Shown: positions 18,612-54,880 of the stretch, piece by piece
Position numbering within the stretch: position 1 is the stretch's first letter
Layout of the letters: each line of letters begins with the position of its first letter
Assembly (NCBI GenBank): GCA_028707495.1
Contig: JAQWAS010000003.1
Location: forward strand, 47,711 to 111,710
Reading direction: 5' to 3'
From: Patescibacteria group bacterium
Lineage (GTDB): Bacteria > Patescibacteriota > Patescibacteriia > UBA2591 > JAQWAS01
Length of the DNA stretch: 64,000 bases
Translations under genes and position numbers: made by a program
Notes under the pieces: model-generated
What the model saw: the letters and a program-made list of their open reading frames with translations, nothing else
The model's database searches: none
Told to the model about the DNA's origin: nothing

Positions 18612-19652
18612 ATGGATATATTTTCAATTATTATTATTTTAATTTTAATCGCTGGTTTTACAGCGCTTTTTTGGCAATTTAAAAAAAATCAACAACCAGA
18701 GGAAAAACCAGAATCAATGTTATTATTACAAAATCAACTAAGTGAGATGCGCAAAGAAGTTGATGGTAAATTAAGTGAATCAAGTCGTCAAATGCAGAAT
18801 CAGTTTACCCAAAGTTTAAATGTAATTAAAGGTGTAACTGAAAAGGTGGTTGAGTTGCAGGAAACAAATAAACAAGTTGTGGGTTTCACTGAACAATTAA
18901 AAAATTTAGAAAAGGTTTTAACCAATTCAAAGAATCGTGGTTCTTTGGGAGAAGCTGGATTAGAAATGATTTTAAATAATATTTTACCACCCCAAGCTTT
19001 TGAAATGCAGTATCACTTTAAAAACGGTGAAGCAGTCGATGCGGTTGTTAAAATTAAAGATAATTTATTGCCAGTTGATGCTAAATTTTCTTTAGAAAAT
19101 TATCGGCGCATTATTGATGAGACAGATCCGGAAAAGAAAAGTTTATTAGAAAAATCTTTTAAAGATGATTTAAAAAAACGCATTGATGAAACTGCTAAAT
19201 ATATTCGTCCACAAGAGGGGACACTTGATTTTGCTTTTATGTATATTCCAGCTGAAGGAATTTATTATGATTTATTAGTTAATGAGGTAGGTTCAATTAA
19301 AGCCAATACGCGTAGTTTAATTGATTATGCGTTTAATGAAAGAAAGGTTGTTATTGTTTCGCCAACGACCTTTGCTGCTTATTTACAAACTGTACTTCAG
19401 GGTTTGCGGGCTTTAAAAATAGAAAAAGATGCTAAAGAAATTCAAAAAAATGTTGAAAAATTACAAAAACATCTTTTAGCTTATGATGAGTATTTTAAAA
19501 AAGTTGGCAATAATTTAGCGACAACCGTCAATGCTTATAATTCAGCTGACAAGGAATTACAAAAGATTGATAAAGATGTGGTTAAAATCACGGGAGGAGA
19601 AAGTCAAGCTGAAATTTTACAACTTGATAAACCTAAATTAAAAGAGGAATAA
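18612..19652 (+). CDS. rmuC: DNA recombination protein RmuC
   Basis: N-terminal TM helix, coiled coil, RmuC core SLGEAGLEMILNNILP. Confidence 0.75.
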   Translation: MDIFSIIIILILIAGFTALFWQFKKNQQPEEKPESMLLLQNQLSEMRKEVDGKLSESSRQMQNQFTQSLNVIKGVTEKVVELQETNKQVVGFTEQLKNLEKVLTNSKNRGSLGEAGLEMILNNILPPQAFEMQYHFKNGEAVDAVVKIKDNLLPVDAKFSLENYRRIIDETDPEKKSLLEKSFKDDLKKRIDETAKYIRPQEGTLDFAFMYIPAEGIYYDLLVNEVGSIKANTRSLIDYAFNERKVVIVSPTTFAAYLQTVLQGLRALKIEKDAKEIQKNVEKLQKHLLAYDEYFKKVGNNLATTVNAYNSADKELQKIDKDVVKITGGESQAEILQLDKPKLKEE

Positions 19653-19680
19653 AAAATAGTTTTAAAACAATAAAAATAAA

Positions 19681-19710
19681 AAAGGACTCCACCTGGAGTC
19701 ACTTTTTTCG
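19681..19710. terminator. Bidirectional terminator between rmuC and the SBBP gene (AAAAAGGACTCCAcctGGAGTCACTTTTTT)
   Basis: A hairpin with A/T runs on both sides. Confidence 0.7.
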
Positions 19711-19714
19711 ATTT

Positions 19715-21316
19715 TTATTTAATGAGCACTAATTTACGACTGGTTGTTGTATTGCCAGTTTGGATTTCGGCATAATATATACCAGAAGGAACTAATTGAC
19801 CGTTTTGATCGGTCGCATTCCAGACAATTTGTCCTTGTTGATTTGCGTTTTTGAAGGCTTTGATCTTTCGACCACTAACATTGTATATGTCGATAGATAT
19901 TCCTTGATTGGTTGGAATGGAGTAGGAGATGTAGATTGATGAGTTAAATGGGTTGGGACAGGTATTGACTGAAAATTTTTGTGGTTTAATATTTTGGATT
20001 ATTCCCGTTTCTGAAGAGAGTTTAACTATCCAACAATCACTATTGCCATGGTTTCCGCTTACATCGCCATTAACGGATCCAGAATAGCCCGTTATAATAT
20101 AGTTATTATCAGCTACTTGTTGGACAGAATATGCAAAGTCCTCTCCATATCCGCCCAAACAACGTTGCCATTCGATCGAACCTGATGAGTTAAGTTTAAG
20201 TAACCAATAATCACTATGACCGTGGTTTCCGCTCACGTCGCCATCGTTGGATCCGGTATAACCTATCACAATATATCCATTATCAGTTGTCTGCCGGATA
20301 GATTGCATAAATTCACTATGGCTTCCGCCATAACAACGCTGCCATTCGATCGAACCTGATGAGTTAAGTTTAAGTAACCAATAATCAGTATAACCATGGT
20401 TTCCGTTCACGTCGCCATCATTAGAAAAAGTATAACCCGCCACGATGTAGCCCTTGTCATATGTTTGTTGAACAGAGGAGGCTTTATCAATATCACTTCC
20501 ACCATAACAACGCTGCCATTCGATTAAGCCCAATGAATCGATTTTGACTATCCAACAATCAGTATAACCATGGTTTCCACTCACGTCACCATCATTGGAA
20601 TTGGAGCTTCCTGATATGATATATCCACCATCACGTGTTTGCTGGATAGAAGATCCATAATCGTGATTACTTCCGCCCAAACAACGTTGCCATTCGATTG
20701 AGCCCAATGAATCGATTTTGACCATCCATAAATCATAGGCTCCATGATTACCACTCACGTCACCATCATTAGAAAAAGTATGACCTGCCACGATGTAGCC
20801 CTTGTCATGTGTTTGTTGAACAGAGAAGGCTTCATCAATATTACTTCCGCCCAAACAACGCTGCCATTCGATTGAGCCCAATGAATCGATTTTGACTATC
20901 CAACAATCAGTATAACCATGGTTTCCACTCACGTCACCATCATTGGAATTGGAGTTTCCTGATATGATATATCCACCATCACATGTTTGTTGGATAGAAG
21001 ATCCATAATCGCGGTTACTTCCTCCATAACAACGCTGCCATTCGATTGAGCCCAATGAATCGATTTTGACTATCCAACAATCAGTAATGCCGTGATGTCC
21101 GCTCACGTCACCATCATTGGAATTGGAGTTTCCTGATATGATATATCCACCATCACATGTTTGTTGGATAGAGGATCCGTTGTCACTATTACTTCCTCCA
21201 TAACAACGTTGCCATTCGATTGTTGTCTGGGCAAAACACAAGCCCACAAAGGTGAGTAAAAAACTCACCAAGATCAACATCTTTTTCATTTTTCCTCCCA
21301 AATTTTTAAGTTGCAA
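19715..21316 (-). CDS. Secreted SBBP-type beta-propeller repeat protein with a T9SS-type C-terminal sorting domain (Por_Secre_tail-like)
   Basis: Signal peptide. Seven or more roughly 50-aa repeats, IEWQRCYGGSN.D.GSSIQQT.DGGYIISG.SNSNDGDVSGNHG.TDCWIVKIDSLGS, with near-identical DNA copies. The C-terminus ...SGIYYAEIQTGNTTTSRKLVLIK fits the T9SS CTD. Confidence 0.7.
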   Translation of the reverse strand: MQLKNLGGKMKKMLILVSFLLTFVGLCFAQTTIEWQRCYGGSNSDNGSSIQQTCDGGYIISGNSNSNDGDVSGHHGITDCWIVKIDSLGSIEWQRCYGGSNRDYGSSIQQTCDGGYIISGNSNSNDGDVSGNHGYTDCWIVKIDSLGSIEWQRCLGGSNIDEAFSVQQTHDKGYIVAGHTFSNDGDVSGNHGAYDLWMVKIDSLGSIEWQRCLGGSNHDYGSSIQQTRDGGYIISGSSNSNDGDVSGNHGYTDCWIVKIDSLGLIEWQRCYGGSDIDKASSVQQTYDKGYIVAGYTFSNDGDVNGNHGYTDYWLLKLNSSGSIEWQRCYGGSHSEFMQSIRQTTDNGYIVIGYTGSNDGDVSGNHGHSDYWLLKLNSSGSIEWQRCLGGYGEDFAYSVQQVADNNYIITGYSGSVNGDVSGNHGNSDCWIVKLSSETGIIQNIKPQKFSVNTCPNPFNSSIYISYSIPTNQGISIDIYNVSGRKIKAFKNANQQGQIVWNATDQNGQLVPSGIYYAEIQTGNTTTSRKLVLIK

Positions 21317-21465
21317 TTGACTTTTTGTTTGTGTTATTATCTTAGTACATGTTTATGAACTTGTCAAGGGTAGAGGTGTTATTGCGATGACCCCGCCTCT
21401 TGCGAGAGGCGGAGGATGCGGCAATCCCGTTGTTAAATTGTTATTCTGGCAGGTCGCACCTGCCA

Positions 21466-21560
21466 GCTGGCAATTGATAAAGACGTGATTAAAATAACAG
21501 ACGGCGAAGGTAATTTTGAAACTTTACAATTAGATAAACCTAAAATAAAAGAAGAGTAAT
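21466..21560 (+). pseudogene. Diverged duplicate of the rmuC 3' end (encoding ...DVIKITDGEGNFETLQLDKPKIKEE*). A copy of the rmuC terminator follows at about 21587-21615.
   Basis: About 75-80% nucleotide identity to 19569-19652. The terminator stem GGGGCTCCAcaaGGAGTCCC parallels the one at 19681. Confidence 0.6.
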
Positions 21561-21626
21561 CTAAAAAACAAAATAGAAAATAAAAAAAGGGGCTCCACAA
21601 GGAGTCCCTTTCTGGTTGAGGACGAT

Positions 21627-22037
21627 TTATTCGTCCGAAGCTTCAGCATCTTCAAATTCGCCGAGTTTCTGAAGAGTCGTTGTCATAAACTTAGTCTTTG
21701 GCGTAGCTAATTCGTAAAGTATAGCCCATTCTTCAAGAGAGGATGCCCTTTCGGCCATTTCTTCTAAAGCTCTTTTTTGGAACCTTGAGCCTTTATTAGA
21801 ATGTTTGTGTATAAGATGCCATTGTTTAAAGGTTTCCGCTTTCTCGGTCATTCTTCGAAGAGCTAGAGCTATGAGGTCGGCTGCAAGTTGTGAAGATGGA
21901 TAAATTTTTTCACAAATTATTAACCAATCGTCGAAAGATTTTAGTTTTTTTCTTATTTCATCTTCTGTAATTTTATTAGCTAAATAACGAGCAATTAAAG
22001 CTGGAATTTTGCCAATCAATTTTTCCAGAGCTAACAC
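21627..22037 (-). CDS. Hypothetical alpha-helical protein. GC is higher than in its neighbours.
   Basis: Track ORF. Its promoter and 5'UTR are about 75% identical to those of the SBBP gene. Confidence 0.45.
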   Translation of the reverse strand: MLALEKLIGKIPALIARYLANKITEDEIRKKLKSFDDWLIICEKIYPSSQLAADLIALALRRMTEKAETFKQWHLIHKHSNKGSRFQKRALEEMAERASSLEEWAILYELATPKTKFMTTTLQKLGEFEDAEASDE

Positions 22038-22430
22038 AATATCTCCTTTTTTAAGTTGCGATTGTTTTTTGTTTGTATTGTCATCTTAGCGTTTTGTTGT
22101 AAACATGTCAAGAGTTGGGTGAATAGTTTGATCATCCCTTCTGACCGCCGAATCGTTTGCCAGCTGACCCGTCAGTAGACAGGATTCAGCGTTAAACGTT
22201 TCTCTCGCCGTCATTCCTGGCTCCCGCCCGCTGGCGGGCAGGTGACCGGGAATCCAGGGTAAAAAATAAGTATTTTATTTTAGAATAAGTATTGTTAAAT
22301 CTAAAAAGTATTTTTTAAAGCAAAATATCTATTAGCTAACCTTGGATCCCCACTTTCGTGAGGATGACGGAAAGAGAAGTGGGATGACTTTCCTACTCTT
22401 GACCTATTTTGAAGCTATGCTATAATATAA

Positions 22431-22457
22431 TTAGCACTCTAAGTAAGAGAGTGCTAA
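22431..22457 (+). promoter_or_regulatory. CIRCE operator (TTAGCACTC-N9-GAGTGCTAA), overlapping a sigma-A promoter (TTGACC 22399-22404, TATAAT 22421-22426)
   Basis: A perfect match to the CIRCE consensus directly upstream of hrcA. Confidence 0.9.
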
Positions 22458-22473
22458 AAGGAAATATAAAATT

Positions 22474-23163
22474 ATGGATCAAGAAAAAATGGCTTTATTG
22501 AGCCAAATAATTGCAGAACATATTCACAGCGCCAAACCAGTAGCGTCGCAGTTGATTGTGGATAAGTATGGTTTAAAAATGAGTTCAGCCACAATTCGCA
22601 ACCGAATGGCTGAATTAGAAGAGGAAGGTTATCTAACTCATCCATATACTTCAGGCGGAAGAATCCCGACCATCAAGGGTTATGATTTTTATATTAAAAA
22701 TTTGTTAGAAATTAAAAAAATTTCCAGTAAAGAAAAACAAGTTTTGGAAAAAATTAAAACAGATTTTCAAGATCAACGGGAAATTTTAAAAAATTTAGCT
22801 AAGGGTTTGGCAGAATTTTCACAGGGTTTAGTCTTTATTGCTTTTAAACCCTTAGATTTTTATTATACTGGTGTCGCTAATTTATTTAGCCAAGTCGAAT
22901 TTAGAGAATATAATTTAGTTTGTAATTTATCAGAAGTTATTGATCACTTTGATGAAGTTTTAGAAAATATTTTTGATCAGGTCACTGAACAGCCACAAAT
23001 TTTAATTGGTAATCAAAATCCCTTCGGTGAGGCTTGCGGTACGATTATTACAAAATATAATTTTAATTGCAACGATAGTTTGTTGGGAATTTTAGGGCCG
23101 ATGCGAATGGATTATGGTAAAAATTTAGGTTTAATTAAATATATCCAAGAGTTAATTAAATAA
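22474..23163 (+). CDS. hrcA: Heat-inducible transcription repressor HrcA, short at 229 aa
   Basis: N-terminal wHTH: QLIVDKYGLKMSSATIRNRMAELEEEGYLTHPYTSGGRIPT. Confidence 0.75.
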   Translation: MDQEKMALLSQIIAEHIHSAKPVASQLIVDKYGLKMSSATIRNRMAELEEEGYLTHPYTSGGRIPTIKGYDFYIKNLLEIKKISSKEKQVLEKIKTDFQDQREILKNLAKGLAEFSQGLVFIAFKPLDFYYTGVANLFSQVEFREYNLVCNLSEVIDHFDEVLENIFDQVTEQPQILIGNQNPFGEACGTIITKYNFNCNDSLLGILGPMRMDYGKNLGLIKYIQELIK

Positions 23164-23167
23164 TCTT

Positions 23168-23668
23168 ATGTCAAAAAAAGATAAATTATCAGTAGGGGTA
23201 GTGGATAAAGAATTACAACAGCAGATTAATGAATTAAAACAACAAGTCGAAGAAAATTTAAACGGCTGGAAAAGAGCTCAGGCAGATTATCAAAATTTAC
23301 AAAATGATTTTAATAAACAAAAATCGAGTTTAATCGAATTTGCCAATTTGGGTTTGATTATGGATTTATTGCCAATTTATGATAATTTTTTGAAAGCCAT
23401 GGAACATCTTCCGGTAGAGCAACAAGCGAGTGATTGGGTGATTGGTATTACCCATATTAAAAATCAATTACAAAATTTATTAAAAGAAAAACAAGTTGAA
23501 CCGATTCAATCGGTGGGAGAAAAATTTAATCCGGAATTGCACGAAGCGATTGGTCAAGAAGAACACGTGGATTTAGAAGATGAAATTATTGTTAAAGAGA
23601 TTCAAGCTGGTTATACTTTAAAAAATAAAGTTATTCGTCCAGCTAAGGTGATTGTTAATCAAAAATAA
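23168..23668 (+). CDS. grpE: Nucleotide exchange factor GrpE
   Basis: WKRAQADYQNLQND...coiled coil...four-helix bundle core. Confidence 0.85.
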   Translation: MSKKDKLSVGVVDKELQQQINELKQQVEENLNGWKRAQADYQNLQNDFNKQKSSLIEFANLGLIMDLLPIYDNFLKAMEHLPVEQQASDWVIGITHIKNQLQNLLKEKQVEPIQSVGEKFNPELHEAIGQEEHVDLEDEIIVKEIQAGYTLKNKVIRPAKVIVNQK

Positions 23669-23673
23669 ATCGC

Positions 23674-23797
23674 TGTCATTCTAAAGTGGATCCGCCAGCT
23701 GGCGGACGATTCGGCAGGCGGAACGATAGAATCCTGAGGGCAGATCTCTAAAACAATGGGATTCTATCGCTCCATTTCATTCCGCTCCAGAATGACC
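23674..23797. mobile_element. MITE-like element, variant A: termini TGTCATTCT...AGAATGAC, with internal palindromes
   Basis: Internal palindromes are CCGCCAGCTGGCGG and GATAGAATCC...GGATTCTATC. Confidence 0.5.
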
Positions 23798-23808
23798 GGT
23801 TTAAAAAG

Positions 23809-23930
23809 TGTCATCCTGAATTTATTTCAGGATCTGAAATCAGAATAAACGTTTCTTTAAAAAAGACACTCTAAGTGCCAACAGATTCTGAAACATCCTC
23901 CGATTTGGCGGACTAGAGTTCAGAATGACA
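23809..23930. mobile_element. MITE-like element, family B, about 122 bp: TGTCATCCTGAATTTATTTCAGGATC ... AGATTCTGAAACATCCTCCGATTTGGCGGACTAGAGTTCAGAATGACA
   Basis: A near-identical copy lies at 47443-47564 and a more diverged one at 34573-34674. Three tandem TTCAGRATGRCA motifs follow at 23920-23990. Confidence 0.65.
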
Positions 23931-24086
23931 GTTGTTTGTTCAGAATGGCAGTTGTCGGTTCAGGATGACAAGGAGTTATTTTAGGACGACAAAGGGTGGA
24001 TTTTTAATAATATTTTAATAAATAAAAAAATTAATTTTATTCGAACTAGCTCAAAGACATTTAAAGTCGGAGACTAGCGTCGAATC

Positions 24087-24527
24087 ATGATATCTATGTC
24101 AATAATCAAATGGAGGCCCATGTTCCCATTTTGGGATGAGGAAGACAAGCTTTTTGAAGACTTAACTCCAAGTCTTTATTCAAATGCTCAAAATTTTGTG
24201 CCAGCCATAGACGTTTATCAGACCAAAGACGATGTCGTGGTTGAAACTGCTTTGAGTGGAGTTAAGCCCGAGGATGTAGAAATTTCAATTGAAAATGATG
24301 TTTTAACTATCAAGGGTCAAGCAAAAAAAGAAACTGAAATTGATGAAAAAAATTATTACCGAAAAGAAATGCGCACTGGTAGTTTTCATCGTTCGGTAGT
24401 TTTACCAACACATGTTATTTCAGATAAGGCCGAGGCTACGTCCAAAGATGGCGTTTTAAAAATCGCTATTCCTAAAGCGCCTGAAAGCAAAATCAAAACT
24501 ATCAAAGTTAAAGTAGAAAAAAAATAA
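24087..24527 (+). CDS. Hsp20/alpha-crystallin small heat-shock protein. The start may be the internal ATG near 24120.
   Basis: VPAIDVYQTKDDVVVETALSGVKPEDVEISIENDVLTIKGQ. Confidence 0.8.
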   Translation: MISMSIIKWRPMFPFWDEEDKLFEDLTPSLYSNAQNFVPAIDVYQTKDDVVVETALSGVKPEDVEISIENDVLTIKGQAKKETEIDEKNYYRKEMRTGSFHRSVVLPTHVISDKAEATSKDGVLKIAIPKAPESKIKTIKVKVEKK

Positions 24528-24625
24528 ATTGTCATTATCCAAGTAATCTCATTTGATGGGATTACTTTGGGCTAGTAAATTAAAATTTAATTTACTAACC
24601 CGAAGTAAAATTAACTAATTATTAA

Positions 24626-26563
<1,938 letters not shown>

Positions 26564-31162: not shown

Positions 31163-33196
31163 ATGTCACAACGTAAAAAAATTTGGTTAAGCTTTGCAGC
31201 TATTTTAATTATAGCCCTTTTTTGCGGTGCTGTTGATTATCCCAAATTACCTTGGGATAATAAAGTAGCTAATTGGTTTACCAATCAAAAAGTTCATCTA
31301 GGTTTAGACCTGCAAGGCGGAACGCATTTAGTTTATCAAGCTGATGTCAGCAATATCGAATCAGAAGAAAAGGGTTCAGCTGTTGAAGGTGTCAGAGATG
31401 TGATTGAACGTCGGGTTAACACTTTTGGCGTTTCTGAGCCAGTCGTTCAAACTAATAAAGTTAAAAATACTTGGCGAATTATTGTAGAATTACCAGGCGT
31501 TAAAGACGTTAAACAGGCGATTCAAATGATTGGAGAAACGCCTTTATTAGAATTTAAAGAACAAAAAGACGCACCCGAGGCTGAGGAAAAATTAAAAATT
31601 GAGAGTCAAGCACAAGAGATTTTAACTGAAGTCAAAAATAATCCAGCGCAGTTTAATGAAATTGCTCAACGAGTCGCAGATGAAAATTCTGGTATAGAAT
31701 TTAATGCCGATCAAATAAAATTTAAAGATGAAATAGATGCTTCAATTCGTGATCAGGTTTGGAATATGTATCAAGGACAGATTTCAAAGGTGATTGAGGG
31801 TAATTTAGGCTATATGGTTTTAGATCAGAATGTGGTGCCACGCGCGGGTTATTACATTATAAAAATAGACGATAAAAAATATAACATAGAAAGAATTGAA
31901 GAAAATCAAGACCAAGAGGTAAAAGCTTCACATATTTTAATTGCCTATCAAGGAGCTGAACGAGCGACAACCGATAGAAGTCAAGAAGAAGCTAAAACTT
32001 TAGCTGAGGAATTGTTAGATCGTATAAAAAATAATGGCGAGAATTTAGCTGATTTAGCTAAAGAATATTCAGATTGTAGTAGTGCTGAAATGGGTGGCGA
32101 CTTGGGATTCTTTGGTAAAGGAACTATGGCGCCGGAATTTGAAGAGGCGGCCTTTAATTTAGAAAAAGATCAAATTTCAGATATAGTTGAAACTAATTTT
32201 GGCTATCATATTATTCAAGTGACTGACATTAAAGGCGAGACTGAAACTAAAACTTATGAAGATCAAATCGTTTACAGTTCACTTTTCTTTGGTATTACTT
32301 ATGATCCTTGGCAAAACACTGGTTTAAGTGGTCAACAATTACAAATCGCACGAGTTGAGTTTGATCCCAATACTGGCGCACCAGAAATAGCTTTAGAATT
32401 TAATCAAGAGGGAGCAGATTTATTTGCGGCCATTACCGAACGCAACGTCGGTCAGCCGGTAGCGATTTTCTTAGATGGTCAGGCAATTAGCATTCCAACA
32501 GTTAATGAAAAAATTCCTGACGGTAAAGCGGTCATTAGTGGTAAATTTAACATCACTGAAGCTAAATTATTAGCTCAACGTTTAAGTGCTGGTGCTTTGC
32601 CAGTACCAATTGAATTAATTTCACAACAAACAGTTGGTGCTTCTTTGGGCCAAGATTCTGTGGCTAAAAGTTTAAAAGCTGGATTGATCGGTTTAATTCT
32701 AATTGCTTTGTTTATGATAATTTTATATCGTTGGCCAGGTGTCTTAGCTGTTTTGGCTTTAATTTTATACAGCGTTATAACTTTAGCTGTTTTTGAATTA
32801 ATTCCCATCACTCTAACCTTAGCTGGAATTGCTGGGTTTATTTTATCTATTGGTATGGCAGTTGATGCTAATGTTTTAATTTTTGAAAGATTAAAAGAAG
32901 AGCTTAAAGATGGTAAGCCTTTAGACTTAGCCGTTAAGGATGGTTTTGATCGAGCCTGGACTTCAATTCGTGATGGTAATTTATCAACCTTAATTACTTG
33001 TGTAATTTTATATTGGTTTGGTACGAGCATGATTAAGGGCTTTGGTTTAACTTTAGGTCTTGGTGTTGTTTTGAGTATGTTTTCAGCCATTGTCATTACA
33101 AAAACATTTTTAAGATTATTTGGTGGTAGGGGTAAAAGATTGTGGTTGTATGGAGTTAAAAATAAACAACAAGATAAAGATTTAGAAATTAATTAA
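31163..33196 (+). CDS. secD: Protein translocase subunit SecD with a parvulin-type PPIase (PrsA/SurA-like rotamase) domain inserted in the periplasmic P1 region
   Basis: The N-terminal SecD signature is LGLDLQGGTHLVYQAD. The inserted domain is HILIAYQGAERATTD...MGGDLGFFGKGTMAPEFEEAAFNLEKDQISDIVETNFGYHIIQV. The SecD P1 head resumes after the insert (NVGQPVAIFLDGQAISIPTV), followed by the TM bundle. Confidence 0.75.
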   Translation: MSQRKKIWLSFAAILIIALFCGAVDYPKLPWDNKVANWFTNQKVHLGLDLQGGTHLVYQADVSNIESEEKGSAVEGVRDVIERRVNTFGVSEPVVQTNKVKNTWRIIVELPGVKDVKQAIQMIGETPLLEFKEQKDAPEAEEKLKIESQAQEILTEVKNNPAQFNEIAQRVADENSGIEFNADQIKFKDEIDASIRDQVWNMYQGQISKVIEGNLGYMVLDQNVVPRAGYYIIKIDDKKYNIERIEENQDQEVKASHILIAYQGAERATTDRSQEEAKTLAEELLDRIKNNGENLADLAKEYSDCSSAEMGGDLGFFGKGTMAPEFEEAAFNLEKDQISDIVETNFGYHIIQVTDIKGETETKTYEDQIVYSSLFFGITYDPWQNTGLSGQQLQIARVEFDPNTGAPEIALEFNQEGADLFAAITERNVGQPVAIFLDGQAISIPTVNEKIPDGKAVISGKFNITEAKLLAQRLSAGALPVPIELISQQTVGASLGQDSVAKSLKAGLIGLILIALFMIILYRWPGVLAVLALILYSVITLAVFELIPITLTLAGIAGFILSIGMAVDANVLIFERLKEELKDGKPLDLAVKDGFDRAWTSIRDGNLSTLITCVILYWFGTSMIKGFGLTLGLGVVLSMFSAIVITKTFLRLFGGRGKRLWLYGVKNKQQDKDLEIN

Positions 33197-37984: not shown

Positions 37985-40552
37985 ATGTGGTTATTACAAA
38001 CATCTGTACAAATTGATTTAACGCAAGTGCCTAGTGTAGGCCAAGATGTCTCATCGTCCTTGGTGATGTTTATTTTTTTAATAATTTTTGGAATTTTTGT
38101 TTTGTTTATAGCATGGTTAATTTTAAAAAAGATTTTAACGCGAATGTATGGCTGGTCGGCAATATTTAAAAGGGTTTATCTATTAGTAACTGTACCAAAA
38201 GATAAAGATAATAAAGAAGAGGGGCAAAAAGAAATGCAAGATATTTTAGCGGTGGCGGAGGCTTTGTATTCAACTCTGGGCGGTTTGGCGCCAGCAGTTA
38301 ATTTCCAAAGTAGAATTTTAGGACGGCAAGATCATTTTAGTTTTGAAATTGTAGCTGATCGCGAAGGTTTGATTTCATTCTATGTGGTTGTGCCAAAGTA
38401 TTTACAACAATTTTTTGAACAACAAATTCACGCTCAATATCACAATGCTCAAATTGAAGAAGTTGATGACTATAATATTTTTCATGAAAAAGGTCAGGTG
38501 GCTGGGGCTTATTTAAAATTAACCAAAAATTCTATTTTTCCTCTAAAAACTTATACTCAAACCGGAGCAGATCCCTTAAATGCTTTAACAAATGTGATGA
38601 GTAAATTTGACCCGTCAGATGGCGCAGTTATTCAAATTGTGGCTCGTTCAGCTCATAAATCCTGGCATCAATTGGGTGCTAAATTAGCTTCCAAAATTCA
38701 ACAAGGCAAAAGTTTAAAACAAGCCAAAAAAGAGGTTATGGGGAATCCAATTCTAAGAACAGTTGGTGATTTGAGTGATTATTTATGGCCACAGAAAAAA
38801 GAGGATAAAATGCAAGATCCTAAAAAAGAATATCGTTTGTCGCCCATGGAAGAAGAAACAGTTAAAGCTTTAGAAAATAAAACTAGCAAAGCCGGTTTTG
38901 ACGTGAATATTCGAGTGATTGTTTCATCTAGTACTTTAGAAAAAGCTAAGGCTGATTTGCATAATATTTTAGACTCTTTTTCTCAATATACGGGTTATGA
39001 ATATGGTAATGGTTTTAAGGCCATCAACGTTTCTGGTAAAAACCTAGATCAAATAGTGGAAGATTATATTTATCGAAATTTCAATGAAAAAAATAAAATG
39101 ATTTTAAACACCGAAGAGATGACCAGTTTATATCATTTTCCTTTGCCGACCACCGAAACACCAAACATTCGTTGGCTATTAGCTACAAAATGTCCACCAC
39201 CAGCCAATTTACCTAATGAAGGTTTGATTTTAGGTGAGAGTGTCTATCGAGGTCAAAAAAAATTAATTAAACTACAAGAAGCCGATCGGCGTCGACATTT
39301 ATACATTATCGGTATGACGGGTGTTGGTAAATCTGTTTTTATCTCTAATTTAGCTATTCAAGATATTCAAAATGGTAAAGGTGTCTGTGTGATTGATCCA
39401 CATGGTGACTTAATTGAAGATATTTTACCGCACATACCCAAAGAACGGATTGAAGATGTGATTGTTTTTAATCCATCAGATATTGAACGGCCAATAGGTT
39501 TAAATATGCTAGAGGGTAAAACTGAAGAAGAGCGTGATTTTGCTACTCAAGAAATGATAGCTATTTTTTATAAATTATTCCCGCCAGAAATGATTGGGCC
39601 AATGTTTGAACATAATATGCGCAACGTCATGTTGACTTTAATGTCAGACGAACAACAGCCTGGTACAATTGCTGAAATTCCACGCATGTTTTCGGATAAT
39701 GATTTTCAAAAACAATGGGTAGCTAAAGTTAAAGATCCAGTCGTGCGATCTTTTTGGGAAAAAGAAATGGCTAAAACCTCAGATTTTCATAAATCAGAAA
39801 TGTTGGGCTATTTAATTTCTAAAGTTGGACGGTTTGTAGAAAACGCGATGATACGAAATATTATTGGTCAAAGTCACTCAGGTTTTAATTTAAAAGATGT
39901 TATGGATCAGCAAAAGATTTTGTTGGTTAATTTATCTAAAGGTACAACCGGCGAAGTTAATAGTAATTTGTTGGGTTTAATTATTGTATCAAAATTACAA
40001 ATGGCGGCTTTGGCACGAGCTAATATATCAGAGAGTGAAAGAAAAGATTTTTATTTATATATTGATGAGTTCCAAAATTTTATTACCGATTCAATTGCCA
40101 CTATTTTAGCTGAAGCGCGTAAATACCGTTTAAATTTAACCATTGCGCATCAGTATATTGGTCAATTAGTTCAAAATCAGGACGCAAAAATTCGTGACGC
40201 TGTTTTTGGTAATGTTGGTACAATCGTCAATTTTAGAATTGGTGTTGATGATGCTGAAACTATGGCTAAGCAATTAGCGCCAGTGTGTTCAGAAAATGAT
40301 GTAATAAATTTAGAAAGATATAATGCTTACGTACGTTTATTAATTGATAATCAAGCTTCGCGAGCTTTCAATATGCATTGTTTTCCACCACCCAGTGATG
40401 GTAATGTTAAAATAGCTCAGGCGATTAAAGATTTATCACGCTTGAAATATGGTCGTGATCGCCAAACTGTTGAAAGAGAAATTTTAGAGCGTTCGCAATT
40501 GGGTGGTAGTAGCGCACAACAGGGACCGCTGGTTGCTGAGCGCACTCTGTAA
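37985..40552 (+). CDS. Type IV secretion/conjugation coupling-protein-like ATPase (VirD4/TraG/TraD family) with an N-terminal TM anchor
   Basis: Two N-terminal TM helices. Walker A HLYIIGMTGVGKSV followed by GKGVCVIDPHGDL (compare TraD ...VIVDPNGD). Walker B YLYIDEFQNF. 855 aa. Confidence 0.6.
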   Translation: MWLLQTSVQIDLTQVPSVGQDVSSSLVMFIFLIIFGIFVLFIAWLILKKILTRMYGWSAIFKRVYLLVTVPKDKDNKEEGQKEMQDILAVAEALYSTLGGLAPAVNFQSRILGRQDHFSFEIVADREGLISFYVVVPKYLQQFFEQQIHAQYHNAQIEEVDDYNIFHEKGQVAGAYLKLTKNSIFPLKTYTQTGADPLNALTNVMSKFDPSDGAVIQIVARSAHKSWHQLGAKLASKIQQGKSLKQAKKEVMGNPILRTVGDLSDYLWPQKKEDKMQDPKKEYRLSPMEEETVKALENKTSKAGFDVNIRVIVSSSTLEKAKADLHNILDSFSQYTGYEYGNGFKAINVSGKNLDQIVEDYIYRNFNEKNKMILNTEEMTSLYHFPLPTTETPNIRWLLATKCPPPANLPNEGLILGESVYRGQKKLIKLQEADRRRHLYIIGMTGVGKSVFISNLAIQDIQNGKGVCVIDPHGDLIEDILPHIPKERIEDVIVFNPSDIERPIGLNMLEGKTEEERDFATQEMIAIFYKLFPPEMIGPMFEHNMRNVMLTLMSDEQQPGTIAEIPRMFSDNDFQKQWVAKVKDPVVRSFWEKEMAKTSDFHKSEMLGYLISKVGRFVENAMIRNIIGQSHSGFNLKDVMDQQKILLVNLSKGTTGEVNSNLLGLIIVSKLQMAALARANISESERKDFYLYIDEFQNFITDSIATILAEARKYRLNLTIAHQYIGQLVQNQDAKIRDAVFGNVGTIVNFRIGVDDAETMAKQLAPVCSENDVINLERYNAYVRLLIDNQASRAFNMHCFPPPSDGNVKIAQAIKDLSRLKYGRDRQTVEREILERSQLGGSSAQQGPLVAERTL

Positions 40553-41526: not shown

Positions 41527-41769
41527 TTATTCGTAGGGCATGATCGAACCTTTTTCTACGTACCTTTTTGTTTTTTGATAGAAAATCGTTATGACGAGAA
41601 TGGGGACACCAAGCTTACTAGTGCCCACACTTTGTAATACAGAAATGATTTTAATTATAGTATTTTCATTTTTACCCTCCTCTTCAATCCATAAGTTTAT
41701 TTTTTCTTCGACCTCTTCGGCAATAGTACCTATTGCTCCAGTTCCTGTAAATATTTTTAACATTTTCAC
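41527..41769 (-). CDS. Small hypothetical protein of 80 aa
   Basis: Track ORF. No confident family. Confidence 0.3.
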   Translation of the reverse strand: MKMLKIFTGTGAIGTIAEEVEEKINLWIEEEGKNENTIIKIISVLQSVGTSKLGVPILVITIFYQKTKRYVEKGSIMPYE

Positions 41770-45761: not shown

Positions 45762-45781
45762 TACGCTTAGTTTCTTTTTGT

Positions 45782-45817
45782 GCGGGTGTCGTATAGTGGT
45801 AGTACAGGGGTCTCCAA
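45782..45817 (+). pseudogene. Displaced 5' half of tRNA-Trp (positions 1-36, ending in the anticodon loop). The palindrome CCCGCCTTTCGCGAAAGGCGGG at 45819-45840 follows it.
   Basis: Identical to the first 36 nt of the intact tRNA-Trp at 46140. Confidence 0.7.
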
Positions 45818-45877
45818 TCCCGCCTTTCGCGAAAGGCGGGACGATTCTCAGCTTAATATTTTAAACAAAATGTTTAT

Positions 45878-46126
45878 ATGTATTCTGTTTATTTATTAAG
45901 AAGTTTAAAAGATAAAAATTTGTATATAGGTTCTACTTTTGATTTAAAATCTAGATATACTCAACATTTAGAAGGTAAGGTGATATCAACCAAAAATAGA
46001 AGACCATTAGAATTAATTTATTATGAAGCTTATAATGATAAATTATTAGCACAAGAAAGAGAACGAAAATTAAAACAATTTGGCTCATCTTATCGGGGAT
46101 TAATTAAAAGATTAAATATAAAATAA
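45878..46126 (+). CDS. Small GIY-YIG nuclease family protein (YhbQ/UPF0213-like)
   Basis: YSVYLLRSLKDKNLYIGSTFDLKSRYTQHLEGK...ELIYYEAYNDKLLAQERERKLK. Confidence 0.8.
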   Translation: MYSVYLLRSLKDKNLYIGSTFDLKSRYTQHLEGKVISTKNRRPLELIYYEAYNDKLLAQERERKLKQFGSSYRGLIKRLNIK

Positions 46127-46139
46127 TTAGTTAATATTT

Positions 46140-46213
46140 GCGGGTGTCGTATAGTGGTAGTACAGGGGTCTCCAAAACCTCTAGCGGGGGTTCGATTCCC
46201 TCCACCCGTGCCA
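46140..46213 (+). tRNA. tRNA-Trp (CCA)
   Basis: Acceptor GCGGGTG/CACCCGT. Anticodon loop CTCCAAA. T-loop TTCGATT. CCA encoded. Confidence 0.85.
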
Positions 46214-46237
46214 TAATTATTTAAGGGTTCTCACTCA

Positions 46238-46280
46238 GCGGGTGACCAGCCTCTAGCTGGGATTCCCTCCACCCGTGCCA
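46238..46280 (+). pseudogene. Degenerate, internally deleted tRNA-Trp copy (GCGGGTGAC..CCTCTAGCTGGGATTCCCTCCACCCGTGCCA)
   Basis: It matches the 3' part of tRNA-Trp but has a damaged T-arm. Confidence 0.5.
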
Positions 46281-46309
46281 TTGTGTAATGAGAATAAATT
46301 TTAAATTTT

Positions 46310-48872: not shown

Positions 48873-49346
48873 TCACGAGGACGGGCCGAATTTTCTGTAT
48901 TTTATTCGATAATAAATATACGAAGTTATGACAGACAGAAAGGTAGAGGTTGTTAAAGCAGCTAGGATATTTATAATAATCATTTTGGGCATGTTACCTA
49001 TGGCAATCCAAATGATTACGAAAGAAATTAAGCTACCTGCGCCAATAATATACAGATTGAGGAGATAGTGATCTTTAAATCTTTTGATGGGGATATAGGG
49101 TGTATTATTATAAAATCCCCAATGAAACATGGGACACATAAAGAGGGCATTTAATACGCCCAAAGTGAAACCAAAGGCTAAATGAACCCTTTTAAGTAGA
49201 TTCATGCCTATTACATGATTAGGCCAGAGGTGATAACATATAGCTAAAAGAATAGCTATTCCAGTGGAAACTAACAGAAACCTTTTCCCCCAACGATTCA
49301 TTTCTTCCATGTTTTCTCCTTTTGTATGTTTTTTTGTAATGAGCAT
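48873..49346 (-). CDS. Hypothetical integral membrane protein
   Basis: Track ORF. Four TM helices predicted by eye. Confidence 0.4.
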   Translation of the reverse strand: MLITKKHTKGENMEEMNRWGKRFLLVSTGIAILLAICYHLWPNHVIGMNLLKRVHLAFGFTLGVLNALFMCPMFHWGFYNNTPYIPIKRFKDHYLLNLYIIGAGSLISFVIIWIAIGNMPKMIIINILAALTTSTFLSVITSYIYYRIKYRKFGPSS

Positions 49347-54190: not shown

Positions 54191-54880
54191 TTATCGACCG
54201 ATAGCCTCTCCAAGAAGTGAGACATCCCCATCGTTAGAGATTTCGTATGATATGAGAGTCTCGGTTGCCACGTATCTATCGCCGGGTGAATCAATAATAC
54301 GAGTTATGTGGACTATTCTATCTTTTGGTATACTCCAGCTTTCAATCTGAACACGTTCGTCAGTTTGGGGTTCAATAAAATACCAAGAAGAAAAATGCGT
54401 ATAGTCCTCCCCGATCAAGACCGCGTTTATGCCATGATTTTCATGCGAATTGTTGTCTTTTGTCATTACTTTCACAAAACAAACAGGAATATCATGGTCA
54501 TAGCCAGCTTTATATAATTCAGCTGAAAAACATCCACACGACCGTCTTTGACCAGAGGAAGTATAACGATGTTCATCTGTTTTGTCTGTTGCGAGAAAGG
54601 TTTCTATCCTTTTTATGCGTTCTTCTTCTCCTAATTCTCGCCAATAATCAGGCATGATGTGCGATTTGTTTTCAGCGACTTTGTATGATTCCCATTCCTG
54701 ATATTCAGCCTCGCTCATAGCCACCCCATCCACAAGGTATGGTTTTCTATTAGCTTTATATTTCTGATATTCCTCTTCGTTCATGGTTACTCCATTCACG
54801 AGATAGTAGTGGGTTGCCATCAGACTACCAATCAGAAGCCCGAGCAGAAGAATAACTACAACTACATTTGTCTTTCTCAT
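54191..54880 (-). CDS. Secreted protein with a possible transglutaminase-like cysteine peptidase core. GC is higher than in the flanks.
   Basis: Signal peptide. Two roughly 25-aa repeats (YLV.GV.M.E.EYQ.). C...H...D arrangement: CGCFSAELYKAGYDHDIPV ... HFSSWYFIEPQTD. Confidence 0.35.
   Translation of the reverse strand: MRKTNVVVVILLLGLLIGSLMATHYYLVNGVTMNEEEYQKYKANRKPYLVDGVAMSEAEYQEWESYKVAENKSHIMPDYWRELGEEERIKRIETFLATDKTDEHRYTSSGQRRSCGCFSAELYKAGYDHDIPVCFVKVMTKDNNSHENHGINAVLIGEDYTHFSSWYFIEPQTDERVQIESWSIPKDRIVHITRIIDSPGDRYVATETLISYEISNDGDVSLLGEAIGR

Follow-up and report, generated by a model that had tools for sequence, protein, structure and literature searches.

The rmuC-hrcA interval

The DNA between the genes rmuC and hrcA, the subject of this analysis, lies within a stretch of 64,000 nucleotides (hereafter the window) from an uncultivated member of the Patescibacteria, or candidate phyla radiation (CPR), deposited as Patescibacteria group bacterium (assembly GCA_028707495.1, contig JAQWAS010000003.1, positions 47,711 to 111,710 of the forward strand). 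The window is AT-rich, with a GC content of 32%, and nearly all of its genes are housekeeping genes read from the plus strand; its proteins also occur in Logan contigs of run SRR22315502. The interval begins at rmuC and is bounded on the right by the heat-shock operon hrcA-grpE-hsp20-dnaK, whose sigma-70 promoter and CIRCE operator occupy 22399-22457. Between these boundaries stand two minus-strand genes in tandem, referred to here as cargo 1, or the propeller gene, and cargo 2, or the 136-aa gene.

Both genes belong to units which follow one another head to tail and which share the same order of parts (Table 1). Each unit consists of an rmuC tail with a bidirectional terminator (blocks A1 and A2), a single minus-strand gene, a leader with its sigma-70 promoter (B1 and B2), and a GC-rich spacer able to form hairpins (X1 and X2). 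The terminator in A1 is common to the propeller gene and the convergent rmuC. Non-homology is limited to the ribosome-binding site, the open reading frame (ORF) and some 10-20 nt 3' of it: homology between the flanks ends a few nucleotides ahead of each ribosome-binding site and restarts 10-20 nt past each stop codon. The two cargo genes bear no relation to one another, and the homologous flanks of both units are ordinary expression signals.

Table 1. Features of the rmuC-hrcA interval and its boundaries, in window coordinates
Feature	Positions	Strand	Description
rmuC	18612..19652	+	Intact, 346 aa; Pfam RmuC E 1.5e-56; conserved gene with duplicated 3' end
A1	19566..19705	+	3' end of the live rmuC (final 28 codons with the stop), 3' untranslated region (UTR), bidirectional terminator (hairpin 19685-19700)
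Cargo 1	19715..21289	-	524 aa from ATG at 21289; secreted seven-blade beta-propeller repeat protein with a C-terminal domain of type IX secretion system (T9SS) type
Blade repeats	20012..21229	-	Seven in-frame 174-nt (58-aa) units inside cargo 1
B1	21303..21371	-	Expression signals of cargo 1: promoter with -35 box 21362-21367 and -10 box 21339-21344 (TAAGAT), leader with the motif CAATTGCAACTTAAAAA (21303-21319)
X1	21372..21472	.	Spacer rich in GC that forms two strong hairpins (fold -40.3 kcal/mol, z -3.9) and meets A2 abruptly at its right edge
A2	21473..21611	+	Severed end of rmuC, in frame over 28 codons plus the stop; 3' UTR; terminator (hairpin 21589-21608)
Cargo 2	21627..22037	-	136-aa alpha-solenoid with three helical-hairpin repeats of about 36 aa
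B2	22048..22115	-	Expression signals of cargo 2: promoter with -35 box 22106-22111 and -10 box 22083-22088 (TAAGAT), leader with its motif (22048-22064)
X2	22116..22262	.	GC-rich hairpin block, including the GTCATTCC...GGGAATCCAGGG element; fold -58.5 kcal/mol, z -3.9
Right-hand core boundary	22399..23163	+	hrcA promoter 22399-22426, CIRCE operator 22431-22457, hrcA 22474-23163

Duplicated flanks and the junction between the units

A sequence-only reading of this DNA had placed a diverged copy of the rmuC end and its terminator inside the interval, and alignment recovers that copy at the same positions. Across 146 columns, 3' UTR and terminator included, A1 and A2 are 74.7% identical (blastn E 5.6e-20), with 79% identity over the 87 coding nucleotides (19566-19652 against 21473-21559). 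The coding part of A2 corresponds to RmuC residues 319-346 (tblastn E 6e-8). Upstream of it there is neither a start codon nor anything resembling RmuC, so that A2 is a severed fragment, and the onset of its homology at 21473 is abrupt. Both copies form the 3' end of a minus-strand gene, as had been proposed from the sequence: read on the minus strand, each A block closes with a terminator hairpin and U-run, with folding energies of -15.0 and -16.3 kcal/mol (z -3.9 and -3.2), and in both cases the hairpin stands 15-20 nt past the stop codon of the cargo gene. A2 now serves as terminator for the 136-aa gene alone. No third copy of the rmuC tail occurs within the window.

On the promoter side, B1 and B2 are 76.8% identical over 69 columns (E 1.7e-7), in agreement with the figure of roughly 75% first given for these promoter and 5' UTR blocks. 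Both contain the promoter TTGACA-N17-TAAGAT and the exact leader motif CAATYGCAACTTAAAAA, of which there is no further copy in the 64 kb. Promoters of the TTGACA-N17-TAAGAT type also drive other lone minus-strand genes in the window (54191-54880, 41527-41763 and 48873-49346). Because the genome reuses this promoter elsewhere, the five minus-strand upstream regions were compared with one another by local alignment. The pairing of B1 with B2 gave a z of 14.9, and every other pair fell between 0.7 and 5.7, so the two blocks are truly homologous rather than instances of a common consensus.

The three further lone minus-strand genes each stand between plus-strand core genes. Their promoters read TTGACA-N17-TAAGAT/TAAACT/TAAAAT, and each has a bidirectional terminator in common with the convergent core gene, so that their layout is that of the rmuC-hrcA units minus the duplicated flanks. 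GC content at third codon positions (GC3) is raised in two of the three (0.354 and 0.357). None of them has a match in Pfam, NCBIfam or PADLOC, and no defence or toxin content was found in any lone minus-strand gene.

The spacers behave differently from the A and B blocks, in that the similarity of X1 to X2 is not significant (P 0.1). X1 ends at the junction 21472|21473, which falls directly after a hairpin with a 9-bp stem. Given that the source is a metagenome-assembled genome (MAG), and that the repeats of the locus break short-read assemblies (the Logan contigs L001 and L002 both terminate within the repeats of the propeller gene), an assembler might have chained two strain haplotypes of one locus. 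We regard such an artefact as very improbable. There is no shared sequence at the X1|A2 junction to mislead an assembler, and the junction is reproduced with 100% identity in a separate Logan contig (L002, SRR22315502), which spans grpE, hrcA, the 136-aa gene, A2, X1 and B1 and runs into the start of the propeller gene.

The GTCATTCC...GGGAATCCAGGG element of X2 belongs to a family scattered across the intergenic DNA of the window, made up of short GC-rich hairpins with the termini GTCATYC ... GRATYC(AGGG), for example TGTCATCCCCGCGTAGGCGGGGATCCAGGG. Members lie at 15252, 15361, 15780, 22210, 22362, 22382, 23675-23963 (five copies), 34667, 34761 and 47444. They cluster at the right edge of the interval (in X2 and shortly before the hrcA promoter), behind grpE and near tRNA-Gln. 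Intergenic DNA makes up roughly 17% of the window and holds 15 of the 20 terminal 7-mers. These elements may be of the repetitive extragenic palindrome (REP) or miniature inverted-repeat transposable element (MITE) kind, and may act as break points. No known RNA family was found in 19000-24700.

Divergence of the severed rmuC tail

The manner in which A2 has diverged from A1 carries most of the weight in what follows. The 18 nucleotide changes between the coding parts result in only seven amino-acid changes, with frame and stop kept, and the non-coding remainder of the A block is only 68% identical. When compared with 35 RmuC tails, the residues of A2 match those seen in relatives at 22 of the 23 positions which can be aligned across the family, and every invariant position of the tail (DKD and P) is retained. 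We simulated neutral decay by placing 18 random substitutions in A1. The simulated tails had a mean of 12.4 amino-acid changes; seven or fewer arose with a probability of 0.001, and compatibility with the family at 22 or more of the 23 positions with a probability of 1e-4. Nei-Gojobori counting gave proportions of synonymous and nonsynonymous differences (pS and pN) of 0.47 and 0.15, and a ratio of nonsynonymous to synonymous rates (dN/dS) of 0.23 (Fisher P 0.005).

A2 thus diverged under purifying selection at the protein level, and would for most of that time have been part of a working rmuC in another lineage. It follows that A1 and A2 diverged as functional rmuC ends in different genomes and were united later, which disfavours an old duplication in place. 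The duplicated segment has the properties of one derived from a different genome, by the dN/dS ratio as well as by the simulation (P about 0.001 to 1e-4), and in this it resembles the product of homology-facilitated illegitimate recombination (HFIR), discussed below.

A tandem duplication in place, in which an ancestral unit of rmuC tail, gene and promoter was copied, diverged over a long period, and had its gene replaced in one copy, would account readily for head-to-tail units with an identical order of parts, and for A and B blocks diverged to a similar degree (75% and 77%), as from a single event. However, a tail severed in this way should decay neutrally, and the substitutions described above look selected. 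The same scheme also requires a later replacement precise to the ORF, and would have to accommodate the spacers X1 and X2, between which no homology is detectable. We therefore consider it unlikely.

Origin of the tandem

To place two orthologous versions of a locus in tandem requires imported DNA, with one join inside homology and one outside it. Our favoured account, in which we place slightly better than even confidence, is that the tandem consists of two diverged versions of one locus, joined by imported DNA through one homologous crossover and one illegitimate join. Under this proposal, a relative with the same locus and a different gene in the slot would have been the donor, and its DNA would have been taken up. 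Homologous recombination would then have taken place in the flanking core gene on one side, either that of rmuC or that of hrcA; with the anchor in rmuC the propeller unit would be the incoming one, and with the anchor on the hrcA side it would be the 136-aa unit. On the other side, the DNA would have been closed by an illegitimate join at 21472|21473, directly after the hairpin. One unit would so have been gained without loss of the other, each gene retaining its own promoter and terminator. The mechanism would be HFIR, in which DNA integrates by homology at one end and by illegitimate joining at the other (PMC3240628), and which has been proposed (PMC5361080; PMC2935791) for the effector-immunity arrays of type VI secretion systems (T6SS) and for rhs arrays, where 3' regions of the conserved gene are left orphaned ahead of older modules.

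The promoter blocks are homologous too, which calls for a donor whose slot was of the same make but held another gene. A donor of this kind would imply at least one earlier exchange of one ORF for another between conserved signals, and the entry of the propeller gene into the clade would have been such a swap. The sequence-only reading had gone further, and had attributed the conserved flanks and swapped cargo to homologous recombination between those flanks. Part of this stands, in that the flanks are homologous, the cargo is unrelated and A2 bears the signature of an orthologue. The tandem itself, however, needs an illegitimate join, because a double crossover in the flanks would replace cargo rather than stack two units.

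Several considerations weigh against our account. Firstly, neither a donor nor a recipient nor a haplotype with a single unit came to light, and the event is inferred from one sequence because the nearest RmuC is only 76% identical and synteny is absent. Secondly, HFIR alone leaves the homology of the promoter blocks unexplained, and a donor with an orthologous slot is an extra assumption, as is competence of the JAQWAS01 lineage to which this genome belongs. Thirdly, the selection test on the rmuC tails draws on just 28 codons, and sliding-window identity along RmuC gives a weak and noisy hint of mosaicism near the 3' end which is uninterpretable at such divergence. In favour of the account, natural competence is established in cultivated Saccharibacteria (PMC10633639; PMC10187176).

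A different source of a surrogate rmuC end would be site-specific integration. In this scheme a small islet without an integrase (19566-21472) would have entered at the 3' end of rmuC, supplied a surrogate tail and been mobilised in trans, with ATTGATAAAGA as its core. The similarity of A1 to A2 does open, on the left, with 11 nt that match exactly (ATTGATAAAGA) and continues at about 79%, the classic pattern of a core followed by a surrogate 3' end; a similar scar exists at a second locus of the window, where an exact copy of the 5' half of tRNA-Trp and a GIY-YIG gene precede the intact tRNA. However, an 11-nt identity is not significant against a background of 79% (about 0.07). The putative element carries solely the propeller gene, and Pfam detected no integrase, transposase or resolvase among the 56 window ORFs scanned, which comprise all of those of at least 120 aa and two smaller ones. 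The homology of the promoter blocks is left unexplained, the third copy of the tail that the accretion of two islets would leave is absent, and the blocks are absent from the viral and metagenome contigs searched. In our view integration of this kind is improbable. More generally, explanations through an integron, a transposon or an integrase were rejected, as no such genes were found among the ORFs scanned.

Comparison with relatives and recurrence of the flanks

The lineage offers no close point of comparison. No RmuC more than 76% identical to that of the window was found among 5.8 billion proteins or the GTDB representatives, and in none of 50 relatives does rmuC adjoin hrcA. In two relatives grpE-hsp20-dnaK lies 5-6 kb downstream of rmuC, with core genes in the interval. 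The neighbourhood of rmuC is equally unconserved on both sides, with 32 families upstream in 44 loci and 26 downstream in 37. A hotspot downstream of rmuC was accordingly rejected, the upstream neighbours being just as variable in relatives.

Two related MAGs, L039 and L040, which share 84-89% DNA identity here, differ by one gene in the corresponding region: in L039 a single 256-aa gene (15273-16043) is inserted between cysS and corA, and the interval from rmuC to dnaK is otherwise collinear.

These comparisons bear on a further alternative, in which the locus would be a recurrent expression slot free of recombinases, its promoter, leader and terminator fixed under selection, and its ORFs exchanged or stacked among co-occurring relatives. 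The confinement of the differences to the ribosome-binding site, the ORF and some 10-20 nt beyond speaks for this, as does the leader core, identical at 28 of 30 positions, and both units must in any case derive from lineages with different cargo between the same flanks. On the other hand, this is a single instance. Neither the A nor the B flanks recur, with no third copy in the window and none in 82 related loci, and the pattern of promoter plus leader is absent from Joint Genome Institute (JGI) metagenome contigs and from viral contigs, so that the promoter block, for which a search of other loci had been suggested, is confined to this interval across the sequences searched. The neighbours of rmuC, as variable upstream as downstream, mark no special hotspot, and the conservation of the leader core (estimated at about 0.01 before correction) loses its significance once the choice of the best window is allowed for. 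We attach little credence to a recurrent slot. Equally doubtful, to our minds, is a stronger version in which the slot downstream of rmuC would make ultrasmall bacteria the owners of a cassette system that works without a recombinase, unrelated ORFs being swapped or stacked from ribosome-binding site to stop through recombination with DNA acquired from co-occurring relatives, and the GC-rich hairpins serving as preferred points of breakage and joining.

A looser form of the leader pattern gave one match, in an apparent coding sequence without a promoter on an AT-rich contig of 1.27 Mb, which was judged to be due to chance.

The idea of a dedicated or recurrent cassette exchange, put forward from the sequence at the outset, is thus not sustained: there is no recombinase among the window ORFs scanned and no third copy of the flanks, and the closest homologue of cargo 2 occurs in another context. 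Nothing supports a mechanism of this kind, and the locus is a fairly ordinary scar of gene acquisition.

Resemblance to known systems

The closest parallels are displacement arrays, as described in the reports on rhs C-terminal displacement (PMC2935791) and on T6SS effector-immunity modules of Vibrio cholerae (PMC5361080). There too a new module lies beside a conserved gene, with the older module farther along and, ahead of it, a stray 3' piece of that gene (here A2); a homologous anchor combined with an illegitimate join has been proposed, and modules stack rather than replace one another. Unlike those arrays, the conserved gene here is the housekeeping recombination gene rmuC and not a toxin, the cargo is convergent to it and has its own promoters, there are just two units, and the promoter-side flank is duplicated as well. 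Nor does the cargo contain any toxin, immunity or defence family recognised by Pfam, NCBIfam or PADLOC. The rmuC-hrcA tandem works like a displacement array, yet does not belong to the toxin families concerned.

With HFIR in transformable bacteria (PMC3240628, and primary work as relayed in PMC5361080), the locus has in common an abrupt non-homologous junction beside homology, and a gain of foreign DNA with no recombinase gene at the locus. HFIR, however, has been defined by experiment, whereas here one scar points to it. In Neisseria, minimal mobile elements (a concept used in PMC3082526 and PMC1538595) likewise place different genes between the same flanks by homologous recombination, with no dedicated machinery. 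In contrast to the present case, they are defined by comparison of strains with one cargo per strain, whereas two are stacked here in one genome, and the flanks here are regulatory blocks rather than flanking genes.

The cassette arrays of integrons are similar in superficial respects, being stacks of single-gene units that all point the same way and are separated by short stretches of structured DNA. Here, however, no IntI-type integrase is found by Pfam among the 56 ORFs, there are no conserved palindromes resembling attC (the dissimilar X1 and X2 provide none), and a fragment of the neighbouring gene forms part of the repeat. The conserved flanks consist instead of a gene tail with terminator and of a promoter with leader. 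Integron cassettes are for the most part promoterless and are read from a common promoter, whereas each gene here has its own TTGACA-N17-TAAGAT promoter and terminator.

The cargo genes

The protein encoded by cargo 1 comprises a signal peptide, seven blades of 58 aa and a Por_Secre_tail domain (PF18962, E 4.8e-9, 36.8 bits against a cut-off of 27). The model TIGR04183 matches residues 445-521 with 44 bits (cut-off 23), and the protein accordingly carries the C-terminal sorting domain of T9SS type A cargo. No T9SS components were found in the 64-kb window. The near-identical internal repeats noticed earlier are evident as the 174-nt blade units, of which units 4 and 6 are 95% identical and share an exact run of 80 nt. 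Judging from this similarity, unequal recombination could alter the number of blades, so that the phase or size variation first suggested would be possible.

The initial description of both cargo genes as richer in GC than their surroundings applies to just one of them when codon position is taken into account. The propeller gene is a compositional outlier, with a GC content of 0.403 and a GC3 of 0.350 (z +2.7), relative to window means of 0.322 and 0.245 (standard deviations 0.037 and 0.039); the GC3 of the 136-aa gene, at 0.263, is ordinary for the window. The codon composition of the propeller gene shows just one thing, namely that it entered the clade from outside at some earlier time. Its homologues are at most 62% identical, and those with a named source come mostly from MAGs of Bacteroidota type, with a few from other phyla, including one from the Patescibacteria (L084). 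That homologue has neither rmuC nor the flank blocks alongside.

T9SS-type C-terminal sorting domains are present on secreted propellers in two Patescibacteria MAGs (19715-21289 of the window and L084 9910-11769). Patescibacteria are generally regarded as monoderm and as having neither an outer membrane nor a T9SS. Either the domain has another role in these bacteria, or the genes have been recently imported.

Cargo 2 seemed to be an orphan in a word-indexed search, but HMMER against 1.8 billion representatives gave 135 relatives at E<1e-3 (P0122-P0255). Many of these have several matched stretches, with up to seven per protein, and the repeat motif of the family, cargo 2 included, can be written TFxxW..VY..S..GS.L...AL.KM.ELA. 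Sequence searches of Pfam, NCBIfam, PADLOC and the PDB returned no match to the family. An AlphaFold2 model of cargo 2 is confident and all helical, with a predicted local distance difference test score (pLDDT) of 91.8, and a Foldseek search of the PDB with this model gave no significant match, just a generic likeness to alpha-solenoids. The family of helical-hairpin repeats of about 36 aa is undescribed. The best homologue of cargo 2 (41% identity, L083) adjoins an unrelated minus-strand ORF, a different context, and the L083 locus has neither an rmuC tail nor a B block.

Other features of the window

Ahead of the tRNA-Trp(CCA) gene (46140-46213) lies a 36-nt stretch (45781-45816) that copies the 5' half of this tRNA exactly and ends in the anticodon loop. 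This copy is followed by a GC hairpin and a gene for an 82-aa GIY-YIG nuclease (45878-46126, Pfam E 1.4e-15), and positions 46262-46281 repeat the tRNA's 3' end (GATTCCCTCCACCCGTGCCA). Rfam detects no group I intron at the locus (45781-46281). The arrangement looks like a tiny nuclease-bearing insertion which duplicated part of its tRNA target, a scar of the same type as the rmuC tail.

Two further proteins deserve mention. SecD (31163-33196) is fused to a PPIC-type peptidyl-prolyl isomerase domain, the rotamase occupying residues 257-355 between parts of SecD P1. At 37985-40552, among core genes, an 855-aa protein has a type IV coupling-protein domain of VirD4/TrwB type.

Implications

The kind of event proposed here is already known, and what is new is an example from a poorly studied phylum. 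If our account is correct, the locus would represent a clean footprint, legible at the level of sequence, of gene gain in an uncultivated lineage of Patescibacteria, achieved with DNA from a diverged relative through one-sided homologous recombination and without the machinery of mobile elements. The practical value is small, and lies in flagging two accessory genes with promoter-like and terminator-like signals of their own: a T9SS-tailed secreted propeller in a lineage where no T9SS would be expected, and a protein from a helical-repeat family that is undescribed. The dN/dS of an orphaned gene fragment offers a simple test by which imported duplicates may be told from those made in place. 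As demonstrations of natural competence are limited to a few cultivated Saccharibacteria, scars of this sort would allow one to ask how often the uptake of DNA shapes reduced genomes.

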